A model generated the notes under the pieces. The model saw only the letters and a list, made by a program, of their open reading frames with translations, was not told where the DNA came from and did no database searches. A stretch of 64,000 nt of DNA from Vicinamibacterales bacterium (lineage in GTDB: Bacteria; Acidobacteriota; Vicinamibacteria; Vicinamibacterales; UBA8438): the NCBI GenBank assembly GCA_965249175.1, contig OZ252227.1, positions 1,731,762 to 1,795,761 on the forward strand, in the 5' to 3' direction. Shown in pieces: positions 15,162 to 47,701 of the stretch. Position 1 is the stretch's first letter, and every line of letters begins with the position of its first letter. The position numbers and the translations under genes are program-made.

Positions 15162-17111
<1,950 letters not shown>

Positions 17112-45057: not shown

Positions 45058-45477
45058 ATGACGAACAACGCGGGTCGCGTCGCGACGGTGCTGGTGCTGG
45101 CCGCATGGGGTGTGGCCTGCGCGGCTGCCGGTGCGCAAGGTGAGAAGCTTGACATTGACGAGCTGAAGCAGCAGCTCGACTCCGGCGCCACGATGCTGCT
45201 CATCGATGTGCGGGAAGAGCACGAGATCGCGAGTGGGTCCATTCCCGGTGCGATTCACATCCCGGTCGGCGACCTCGAAGCGCGCATGGCCGACATCCCG
45301 AAGGACATTCGGCTCGTCTTCTTTTGAAATGGCGGAGGCCGGAGCTCCCGGGCGAAGGAGCTCTTCACCGCGAACGGATACGAGACGGTCGAGTTCTGCG
45401 CGCTGAACGACTGGAAGGCGAGGGGCTACGAGCTGGGCGAGACGGCGAAGCCGAGGCCGGGGCGCATCCGGCCCTGA
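45058..45477 (+). CDS. Exported rhodanese-domain protein, probable selenoprotein (TGA at 45325-45327)
   Basis: IDVRE...IPGAIHIP...LVFF-TGA-NGGGRS: the TGA is at the catalytic Cys position (CxxGxRS). The frame continues with the rhodanese C-terminus to TGA 45475. Confidence 0.8.
45332..45371 (+). promoter_or_regulatory. Candidate bacterial SECIS stem-loop
   Basis: GAGCTCC (45342-45348) / GGAGCTC (45357-45363), loop CGGGCGAA, 14 nt after the UGA; lower GCGG/CCGC stem. Confidence 0.6.
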
Positions 45478-45503
45478 ACGGTTTTGCAGTGAGCCCTGTT
45501 ACC

Positions 45504-45640
45504 CGGGGCCTGCCGGCCGCGCACATCCCTCCAGAAACCGGCTCGCCTCGGGGCGCGTCGTGCCGCTTTCAGGGAGGCGGTGCTTCGTCTCGCCAAAGGC
45601 AGACGGTTTCTTCTGGGATGTGCGCGTCCAGCAGGCCCCG
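45504..45640. ncRNA. Unassigned long imperfect hairpin (candidate structured RNA or palindromic element)
   Basis: Hand pairing gives a nearly continuous rod across 137 nt in an intergenic region; strand and expression unknown. Confidence 0.4.
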
Positions 45641-45802
45641 ACACGGCCCCTGTGGGCTGCAGGACTGTCGTCATCCGGATACACTCCGTTGCCCGCCCTT
45701 CTGGACAGACGGCCTGGTCCGTTGCGCAGATCTGCACATGAACTGGGCTGACACGCGTGACGATAGTGGTTGGCAAGCGGTTTGCTCGAGTACGATGTCT
45801 CG

Positions 45803-47701
45803 ATGCGAGCGTCGCGGGTCGTTACTGTCGTCATCGCCGTTGTGCTAGCCGCCGTCGGGGCCCGGCAGCTCCAGGGTCAGACTCCGCCTGAGGCGCCTGC
45901 CAGCATCGGCGACATGATTCCCCTCACGGCCCTTGCCGCCGATCAACACGGCTTGGCCCTGTGGAACAACACCGACGGAGTGCTCGAGGCGATGAAGACG
46001 GGGCACGACACGAGTTGGACGACATGTTCGAACTCCGCTCCGTTCTACCTTGCCACGCGCGATCACTCCACACTCGACGCGGCCTCATCGGCGGGCCTTC
46101 GTGCGGCACCGGTCATCGACGGTCTCGACGGATTGACGGATGCGCTGGCGACGAACGGCTTCGCGACGACCGATGTGACGCTCGGGTGGAGCGCGCAGTC
46201 CCTCGGCGCCGACATCGAGGGTGACGACTGGCTCTTCGATGCGACGACCGGGGTGGAGCGGCGCTACTACACTGGCGGTCTGCTGACGCTGAGCGTAGGC
46301 GGCGAGCCACTCGCGACCGCACCGATGGCGCGGACCACGTTCACCATCACGTACAACGACCTTGCAGACTGCACGGACGACACCGTGGCACTCGCGACAG
46401 ACGCTGCGCTCCTCGAGAACGGCGCCGCGACCAGCACGGAACTGGTACAGGCGGTGGCGACGGCGCTCATCGACGACCTCGCGGGGAACGGGTTCAGCTT
46501 CGCGGTTGCCTCGCTGACAGTGACCGAGTCGGCGGCGACTGCATCGGCGTTCAGTGAATCGGGTCGCACCGGCGTGTTTCTCGAAGCCGCGTCCGGAAGC
46601 GCCGCGGTCAGCGCGCCCTGGTCGTGCGAGCTGGGCATTGACGAGGACGACTCCACGCACGACTGGACGCTCGTCTGGTCCGAAGACGAGCTGCCGACGA
46701 ACGGCCCGCTCCAGCTGAAGGTCGTGGCCGTCACGCACCCGGACTCCGACGATGCGTCGGACGGGGATCCGGGCGAGGACGAAGGTGCGGACTCCACGCC
46801 CGGCAGGGTCACGCTGACCGTGTTCGATGACAGCGCGCCGACGACGGGTGTCGTGGTCGACGTGGACTTCCCAGCGGCGAAGGGCGAGGCCCGCGGGACC
46901 GTCGATCTGACGATACAACCGGGCAACGAATACCGCGTCACAGTGGGGCACAGTGGCGGCACCGGTCGCGACTATCAGCTCGGTGTGAGTCACGACGGAT
47001 TACTCCTGGGCCAGACGGATCTGCGGTATTCGACCGGCCGTAGCCAGGACTGGGGCATCGAGGCGGGCGAGAACGCGACCGTCACGCTCGAGCTGGCAAC
47101 CGACGCGGCCGTGGCGGCGGCCACGGTGACGTCTGCGCACGAGTCGTCCACGATGGCGACGTCCGTGTTCGTGACGATCATCGACCCAGCCACACGCGAG
47201 ATCGTCAGCGGTCCCACCAACGTTGAGCTCGCGCCCGGCGTGCCGCAGAGCATCAGTGTCCAGAACGTCGGCGCGGCACGTCGTCTCATCGCGCAAGTCG
47301 ACCCGGACGGCGTCTTCCGCATCCGGCGGACGGATGGCGACGGCAAGCTCTACACACGACCCTGTCCGGCGCGGACCGCGCTCGCCTCGGCCACGCTGTC
47401 GACGGTGCAGACCGAGATCTTCACTCCCATATGCTCGGGATGTCACGGCGGGTTCAATCCGCGTGGGGGCCTCAATCTCCAGGAGGGGCAGTCGTTCTCC
47501 AACCTGGTTAACATCCAGAGCTCGCAGACCGCTATGAGTCGCGTCGTGCCCGGCGACCCCGATGCGAGTTACATCGTGCACAAGCTCGAGGGGCGAGCGG
47601 GCATTGCCGGCAGCCGGATGCCGCAGGGCGGGCCGTTCCTCTCGGACGCCTTCATAGCGTTGGTGCGCGCCTGGATTCAGTCAGGCGCCGAGGACAACTG
47701 A
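45803..47701 (+). CDS. Large exported acidic protein with C-terminal c-type heme domain
   Basis: Signal peptide; Thr/Ala/Asp-rich beta regions; IFTPICSGCHGG...SRMP at the C-terminus. Confidence 0.78.
   Translation: MRASRVVTVVIAVVLAAVGARQLQGQTPPEAPASIGDMIPLTALAADQHGLALWNNTDGVLEAMKTGHDTSWTTCSNSAPFYLATRDHSTLDAASSAGLRAAPVIDGLDGLTDALATNGFATTDVTLGWSAQSLGADIEGDDWLFDATTGVERRYYTGGLLTLSVGGEPLATAPMARTTFTITYNDLADCTDDTVALATDAALLENGAATSTELVQAVATALIDDLAGNGFSFAVASLTVTESAATASAFSESGRTGVFLEAASGSAAVSAPWSCELGIDEDDSTHDWTLVWSEDELPTNGPLQLKVVAVTHPDSDDASDGDPGEDEGADSTPGRVTLTVFDDSAPTTGVVVDVDFPAAKGEARGTVDLTIQPGNEYRVTVGHSGGTGRDYQLGVSHDGLLLGQTDLRYSTGRSQDWGIEAGENATVTLELATDAAVAAATVTSAHESSTMATSVFVTIIDPATREIVSGPTNVELAPGVPQSISVQNVGAARRLIAQVDPDGVFRIRRTDGDGKLYTRPCPARTALASATLSTVQTEIFTPICSGCHGGFNPRGGLNLQEGQSFSNLVNIQSSQTAMSRVVPGDPDASYIVHKLEGRAGIAGSRMPQGGPFLSDAFIALVRAWIQSGAEDN

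Follow-up and report, generated by a model that had tools for sequence, protein, structure and literature searches.

Among the palindromic interspersed repeats of bacteria, the ERIC (or IRU) sequences of the Enterobacteriaceae and Vibrio are imperfect palindromes of about 127 bp that lie in transcribed intergenic regions. In some hosts they are present in low to moderate numbers, and the long RNA hairpin to which they give rise can alter the stability of the flanking mRNA. The Correia (or NEMIS) elements of Neisseria have a size of about 100-160 bp and are co-transcribed. The REP sequences, which have RAYT (Y1) transposases as partners, have been divided over GTAG and CGTC super-families (PMC3733652). 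A search of the literature returned no paper on such repeats in the Acidobacteria. The acidobacterial hairpin analysed here probably belongs to an old family of palindromic interspersed repeats, non-coding and lineage-restricted, that would formerly have spread as a non-autonomous element.

The window (the whole stretch of 64,000 nt that was analysed, from a Vicinamibacterales bacterium) carries this hairpin of 137 nt at positions 45504-45640 (CGGGGCCTGCCGGCCGCGCACATCCCTCCAGAAACCGG...CGGTTTCTTCTGGGATGTGCGCGTCCAGCAGGCCCCG), where it constitutes copy A of the repeat family. According to RNAfold all 137 nt form a single rod, at -95.3 kcal/mol on the plus strand versus -61.1 +/- 3.9 kcal/mol for 200 dinucleotide-preserving shuffles (z -8.8; 0 of the 200 as good), and at -91.6 kcal/mol (z -8.6) on the minus strand. 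The three stems named in the earlier note on this DNA are all present: 45504-45513 (CGGGGCCTGC) pairs with 45631-45640 (GCAGGCCCCG), 45518-45529 (CGCGCACATCCC) with 45615-45626 (GGGATGTGCGCG) and 45533-45540 (AGAAACCG) with 45604-45611 (CGGTTTCT). The description of the hairpin as unlike the local REPs likewise holds. An inverted-repeat finder ranked it third by length in the window. Another inverted repeat, with arms of 110 nt that are 75% complementary, was observed at 16018-16251, between two matches to the ALIL (IS3 frameshift) pseudoknot on opposite strands (15489-15605, plus; 16666-16782, minus), an arrangement that suggests two head-to-head copies of the IS3 family.

The location is intergenic, as had been claimed. 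The hairpin begins 26 nt past the TGA stop codon (45476-45478) of a rhodanese gene (45058-45478, plus strand), which has an in-frame TGA (Sec) at 45325-45327 and matches Pfam Rhodanese with E 3.6e-15 when that TGA is read as U (Sec). Some 160 nt separate the end of the hairpin from the following gene (45803-47701, plus strand). The protein encoded there is large and exported, and its C-terminal part weakly matches a cytochrome c domain (PSCyt1, E 0.0019, under the curated cut-off). In this spacer, about 20 nt upstream of the start of the heme-protein gene, TGGCAA-N5-TTGC at 45771-45785 is a good match to the sigma-54 -24/-12 consensus, and about 40 nt further upstream there is a perfect 10-bp palindrome, GCAGATCTGC (45726-45735). 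Both the block and the palindrome are partly conserved in the related genome G001, in which the -12 element reads TTGT. Within 45300-45900 neither a sigma-70-like promoter nor a U-tract terminator was found, and a T-run after the hairpin stem is absent on either strand. The Infernal/Rfam search proposed in the earlier note assigned 45504-45640 to no family, whether at the gathering score or at E<=10, and returned chance matches only.

A BLAST search of the source genome (G000; 6.64 Mb, one contig, 66.6% G+C) with the element as query revealed seven more full copies, 73-82% identical, which brings the total to eight, and about four truncated ones that keep the left arm only. The covariance model R1, built from the alignment of the eight copies (A1), recovers exactly these eight at 102-144 bits, together with one decayed copy; copy A is the top match with 144 bits. 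The model was run on 40 relatives first and then on all 104 species genomes of the taxonomic family. Copies were found in G001 (11) and G002 (about 12), which belong to the same genus as the source genome, and in G008 (about 22), which belongs to another genus, and in none of the other 100 genomes of the family, nor in 16 genomes from other families of the order. An exact-pattern scan with model check yielded true copies in the GTDB contigs, in records of Vicinamibacterales bacterium only, and no copies but chance matches in the JGI metagenome contigs and IMG/VR. The copies measure 115-135 nt, are non-coding and multi-copy, and occupy unlinked sites. The family is real, small and very narrowly distributed, being found in four genomes of two Vicinamibacterales genera. 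Of the identities considered in the earlier note, that of a palindromic mobile relic is supported by these numbers (eight full copies here, 11 to about 22 in each of three relatives) and by the dispersed, intergenic location of the copies. The suspicion of a high-copy repeat was right as to the repeat but not as to the copy number, which is low, and homologues with co-varying stems, the lack of which had been envisaged, do exist.

The limits of the element follow from an alignment of 30 copies with 50-nt flanks from four genomes. Similarity among the aligned copies begins and ends with a family core of about 123 nt that spans YGCCGG to CCGGCR and that in copy A runs from 45511 to 45633 on the plus strand (5'-TGCCGG...CAGCA-3'). 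In most copies one end, 5'-YGCCGGYCGCGCACATCCC..., is the inverse complement of the other, ...GGGATGTGCGCGRCCGGCR-3', so that the element has terminal inverted repeats. A generic half-site of 19 nt, CACATCCC-N3-AGAAACCG, is found inverted on the two arms, with the N3 forming a 3x3 internal loop in most copies. In copy A the left half-site is CACATCCC-TCC-AGAAACCG (45522-45540, plus strand), made up of columns that are invariant or near-invariant in A1 and in an alignment of 52 copies; the right half-site, CGGTTTCT-TCT-GGGATGTG (45604-45622, plus strand), is its inverted copy. The asymmetric apical domain of about 60 nt (45541-45603 in copy A, plus strand) makes the element directional and is the part in which three subfamilies differ. 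The tip hairpin of this domain varies (loop near CUUUCAG), and towards the 3' side there is the best-conserved block of the family, TCTCGCCAAAGGCAGACGGTTTCTT, to which the right half-site belongs. A long variant of the family in G002 (L150; C45, ~690-1010) has about 170 extra nt nested in the apical domain; its half-sites are 263 nt apart and the whole 320 nt form one hairpin of -169 kcal/mol.

Beyond the core the flanks are unrelated between copies, yet within each copy they are mutually complementary for 3-11 bp more. In copy A this private outer stem pairs CGGGGCC (45504-45510) with GGCCCCG (45634-45640). Pairing was evaluated over 44 non-orthologous copies by comparing the Watson-Crick cells with those obtained when partners were swapped between copies. 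The outer stem reached 80% vs 52% (z 17), the core 87% vs 74% (z 16) and the apical domain, where covariation is weak, 55% vs 49% (z 5).

In gene contexts derived from a simple ORF and GC3 gene call, some 49 of the 50 copies adjoin the 3' end of a gene, in non-coding DNA, the stop codon usually being 0-40 nt away (contexts, with E for the element: >E< 17, >E> 13, <E< 9, <E> 1, one side undefined 10). The copies avoid divergent promoter regions (1 of the 40 contexts that could be classified) and occur freely in either direction with respect to transcription (19 sense, 12 antisense). The genes beside them are not related to each other and encode, for instance, a dihydrolipoyl dehydrogenase (lpdA)-like protein, AccB/AccC, an HtrA-like protease, an SDR, a Kef-type antiporter and PQQ enzymes. 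A convergent-gene spacer in G008 (L158; C1:1965380-1965680) contains a different long hairpin of about 150 nt, and its counterpart in G001 holds the element studied here; it seems that sites of this kind are colonised time and again, by palindromic elements that are not related to each other.

The position just behind the selenoprotein gene, to which the earlier note had drawn attention, was confirmed, but not a link to that gene. Since the copies lie behind unrelated genes, and in either orientation, nothing ties the element to selenoprotein synthesis, and the same grounds make it improbable that the element is a novel ncRNA or regulates this gene in cis. A bacterial SECIS must, moreover, come directly after the UGA. 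The nearness of copy A to the selenoprotein gene is coincidental. An intrinsic terminator was also considered and rejected, given the missing U-tract and the situation of copy C, which fills 131 of the 158 nt from the stop codon of an accB-like gene (2469101) to the ATG of accC (2469260). These genes encode the biotin carboxyl carrier and the biotin carboxylase, respectively. As copy C lies between the two and must be read through, efficient termination by the element is incompatible with this gene order, at least in the orientation of copy C.

All eight copies in the source genome have an orthologue in G001 (flanks conserved, 85-97% identity). The site of copy D is filled in the other genus as well, behind the same orthologous gene, where the arms are conserved inside an otherwise unalignable spacer. 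Among non-orthologous pairs the closest is 87-89% identical and the median is 67%; no near-identical paralogues were encountered among the pairs compared. Three copies of G001 occupy sites that are empty in G000, none of the nine G002 copies checked is common to G000, and at least six sites that are filled in G002 or G001 are empty in G000. At one of these three G001 sites (L035) G002 keeps 18 out of 18 nt of the left end of the element, which implies that the element was deleted there. As at least one of the presence/absence differences is a deletion, some of the supposed gains may be losses. Three copies private to G002 look like gains, judging from the compact gene junctions that they interrupt; long, imperfect duplications of the junction flank them, away from the hairpin. 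Taken together, the comparisons show vertical inheritance at many sites, gain at some and loss by deletion at others. Decay is evident too: 41 of the 52 copies still fold at z < -3, and about a fifth no longer fold, with about eight copies decayed to background.

In general, no target-site duplication was detected. Direct repeats at the base of the hairpin amount to 0-1 nt in most copies, and the best direct match between the 70-nt flanks is 6.8, against 6.6 for mismatched flank pairs; short target duplications may have been erased by age. A parent IS, sought as matching separated ends 0.06-6 kb apart in G000 and by pattern search in the relatives, was not found, and the solo arms in the relatives are remnants of deletion or duplication. 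The lack of a parent and of paralogues over 89% identical indicates that the copying activity has ceased and, with no recent copies at hand, mobility is deduced from the distribution. An old interspersed element, subject to gain and loss and without current activity, is what these patterns describe.

Some copies are found close to IS elements. Copies B and D face each other (G000:C1:1533985-1552401) at a distance of 18.4 kb in the source genome and 1.3 kb in G001. The gap in G000 contains one ISL3, four IS256-type and two IS110-type transposase genes and acts as a trap for IS elements; the segment in G001 consists of 1.3 kb of unrelated accessory genes. A composite transposon bounded by B and D was rejected in view of these contents; other close pairs of copies enclose unrelated genes as well. 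By the orthologue of copy G in G001 (L149; C7:842800-847000, ~1430-1720) there is an IS91-like (Y2) insertion, beyond which there is an inverted duplicate of the last 127 nt of the SDR gene and of half the hairpin, which places the hairpin at the junction of an inverted duplication. That the hairpin is an end of this IS91-like element was rejected, since other copies of the IS lack the hairpin.

Between G000 and G001 the element has diverged by 10.8% (96 of 893 positions) and the neighbouring third codon positions by 17.7%; for the four best-aligned loci these values are 7.6% and 12.7%, respectively. The slower divergence of the element is driven by copies A and E, with copy H showing the opposite, over about 900 positions in all. 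Copy A is the most conserved, with 4 of 131 positions differing (3% vs 21% at third codon positions), in an intergenic spacer that is only partly alignable on both sides of it. In the main stem, the orthologue pairs display three compensated double changes, G-C to C-G in copy D (paired columns 20/214), A-T to G-C in copy G (25/209) and T-A to C-G in copy F (9/225), versus roughly 18 single changes. The slower divergence and the compensated changes speak for some constraint on pairing, and it is likely, as far as such comparisons go, that the hairpin fold is constrained to some extent. Alternatively, a mutational process may rewrite one arm after the template of the other. Template switching during replication of quasi-palindromes has this effect; it makes inverted repeats more homogeneous and can lengthen them (PMC7202029, PMC8794818, PMC13100816). 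At one locus (L110) the right flank of the element, CTCATCACCAC, repeats the native left flank, GTGGTGGTGAG, in inverted form for 10 out of 11 nt; the empty site contains nothing that corresponds to this right flank. This flank, a single case, would fit arm-copying by template switching.

We consider the following course of events, proposed from comparisons between genomes, the most plausible one. The element would have spread in the past as a non-autonomous element that was copied in trans by an enzyme recognising either the two half-sites or the folded hairpin, an activity that would since have ceased. The surviving copies would represent those landings where a long stem-loop was harmless, just behind stop codons. 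Upon transcription of the upstream gene, a very stable stem-loop would arise in the 3' untranslated or intercistronic RNA, and this may shield the upstream mRNA against 3' exonucleases in the manner of REP and ERIC; an effect of the hairpin at mRNA 3' ends is conceivable. Selection on the fold, replication template switching from arm to arm, or a combination of the two may have preserved the palindrome and lengthened its base outwards into the flanks. That either orientation occurs and that the conserved half-sites are symmetric suggests that the element was recognised as DNA while it spread; its place behind genes suggests that it was later tolerated, or put to use, as an RNA stem-loop.

A different reading, according to which the hairpin is a domesticated cis-acting RNA element, overlaps with this explanation and differs from it only in claiming a present function. 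The 3'-end or intercistronic stem-loop would be under selection and would stabilise the upstream mRNA, set a processing site or insulate convergent or adjacent transcription units, copy A then serving the transcript of the Sec-rhodanese gene. The location at gene 3' ends, the avoidance of divergent promoter regions and the compensated pair changes between orthologues are in line with such a function, and so is the 97% identity of copy A between G000 and G001 next to 79% for third codon positions and flanks that align only in part. The mismatches that remain in the stem also lean towards G-U on the transcribed strand, with 19 GU and 21 AC for sense copies and 7 and 23, respectively, for antisense copies (element plus strand). 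This difference is marginal, however (Fisher p about 0.05), and driven by a few related copies. The free orientation makes a general sequence-specific recognition of the RNA impossible, roughly one copy in five no longer folds, deletion removes sites with nothing replacing them, and a U-tract is lacking. A present function of the family as RNA is thus conceivable but, in our estimation, rather unlikely.

The conservation of the half-sites on both arms across two genera, with an outer stem and tip that vary, could also mean that the element is in the first place a site at the DNA level. The half-sites, a cruciform or a single-stranded hairpin would be bound by a protein of the host or of a mobile element, for example a nucleoid protein, a recombinase or an HUH (Y1/Y2) transposase, which would make the element a REP/BIME-like substrate rather than a classical cut-and-paste MITE. 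The absence of target-site duplications, as in HUH-type and DEDD-type elements, and the free orientation agree with this proposal. Several copies, furthermore, have mobile or repeated DNA as neighbours: B and D flank the IS nest described above, copy G lies 100 nt from an IS91-type Y2 fragment, and copy E is found beside multi-copy repeats. All four carrier genomes have Y1 transposase genes (PF01797), and so do G006 and G013, from which the element is absent; no such gene adjoins any copy, and the only one in G000 is interrupted by an in-frame TGA (G000:2320177-2320482). Other copies of the IS91-like element come without this hairpin, and a candidate binding protein was not found. We regard a DNA site of this kind as unlikely to be the main explanation. 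The IS200/IS605-type Y1 transposase itself is strongly expanded in some of these genomes, with 52 matches in G001 and 61 in G013, of which about 40 and about 50, respectively, have an identical score and an open frame of 152 aa.

Yet another scenario would replace transposition by template switching. The hairpin would spread and grow through template switching in replication or repair, new copies being templated insertions with variable donor flanks and long target duplications, and not as a transposase-driven MITE; its base would grow by inverted copying of the flanks, and copies such as A would since have been co-opted in the Vicinamibacterales, under purifying selection, as mRNA 3'-end stem-loops that do not depend on a U-tract. 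We judge this scenario to be quite improbable.

An independently transcribed small RNA family (6S-like, Y-RNA-like or another trans-acting ncRNA) with several paralogous genes would account for the rod-like fold, the conserved core, the co-varying stems and a plus strand that always outscores the minus strand (although by construction, the model having been built on the plus strand), but is hardly credible in view of the absence of an Rfam match, of a promoter-like site and of a terminator, the location of the copies 0-40 nt past stop codons or between cistrons, where there is no space for signals of their own, their occurrence in both orientations relative to the flanking genes, the many decayed or truncated copies, and mismatches without an overall strand bias. 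Over all pairs there are 142 G-T vs 104 A-C mismatches, an excess that stems from poorly defined apical pairs; sorted by transcription direction, the main stem contains 48 G-U vs 31 A-C, so that a wobble-pair strand bias is absent overall and marginal after sorting. The candidate of a 6S-like RNA, raised in the earlier note, is excluded: the Rfam 6S family has no match at this locus even at E<=10, and the canonical 6S RNA of the genome (RF00013) is found elsewhere (G000:1233508-1233695, 67.4 bits). The only sequencing runs that contain the locus, four in number, show an even depth over genes as well as contigs of more than 100 kb, and therefore look like DNA; the depth peak over the hairpin in these runs is the sum over the repeat copies.

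The wider importance of these results is small. A candidate novel ncRNA and a supposed link with selenoprotein expression are removed, and an undescribed family of long palindromic repeats is added for a poorly studied soil phylum. Each copy has a complementary stem base of its own, and the base of the L110 copy could serve as a natural example of palindrome growth. The presence of several unrelated families of long hairpins behind genes in these genomes bears on the question of how transcripts end in high-G+C bacteria without U-tract terminators. For annotation purposes, the covariance model can be used to tell these repeats from genuine RNA genes.

Among the known systems, ERIC/IRU, Correia/NEMIS and REP/BIME come closest. 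Compared with ERIC/IRU, the acidobacterial element is of similar size (~125 nt), is an imperfect palindrome over its whole length and occurs in either orientation in intergenic regions or behind genes, a similarity of size, architecture and position only. As in ERIC, some copies are orthologous between species and others lineage-specific. ERIC insertions, however, duplicate TA, whereas no duplication is detectable for the acidobacterial element; the host is an acidobacterium, and the stem base is private to each copy. The Correia/NEMIS elements are similarly short and non-coding, have long inverted repeats, lie near genes, form a hairpin and have no known parent IS, but they occur in hundreds of copies, with TA duplication and with promoter and IHF sites, none of which was seen in the element studied here. 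With REP/BIME it shares the extragenic palindromic character, the location at gene 3' ends or between convergent genes, the absence of target duplications and compensated changes that preserve the structure; for REP, a part in stabilising mRNA has been proposed. In contrast, REPs are 20-40 nt long with a GTAG or CGTC head, occur by the tens to hundreds and are found flanking a RAYT gene. The element under study is 3-5 times longer, starts with YGCCGG, has 8-22 copies and is unlinked to Y1 genes, so that a Y1/RAYT partnership is unsupported.

The features of a MITE that are found comprise the terminal inverted repeats, the small size, the non-coding, dispersed and multi-copy nature and the presence/absence polymorphism; a target-site duplication and a full-length IS with matching ends are lacking. 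A comparison is offered by the window itself, which at 1053-1215 contains an unrelated hairpin of about 163 nt (-135 kcal/mol for 1040-1230) with seven copies in the genome, 83-95% identical, each flanked by CTAG/TAG, the signature of an IS630-type MITE. Both families are small, non-coding and multi-copy and have terminal inverted repeats and a hairpin, but the CTAG/TA flanks and the identity of up to 95% of the IS630-type family have no equivalent in the family studied here. An integron attC site was also considered and rejected: the ends misfit the R-box consensus (RYYYAAC...GTTRRRY), and the copies are dispersed over the chromosome, not arrayed. Membership in the ERIC, Correia or REP families is not supported, the likeness to ERIC and Correia serving as description only. 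With private stem bases and a lack of target duplications as its unusual traits, the element is best filed as a previously undescribed family within the palindromic interspersed repeats and MITE-like elements.
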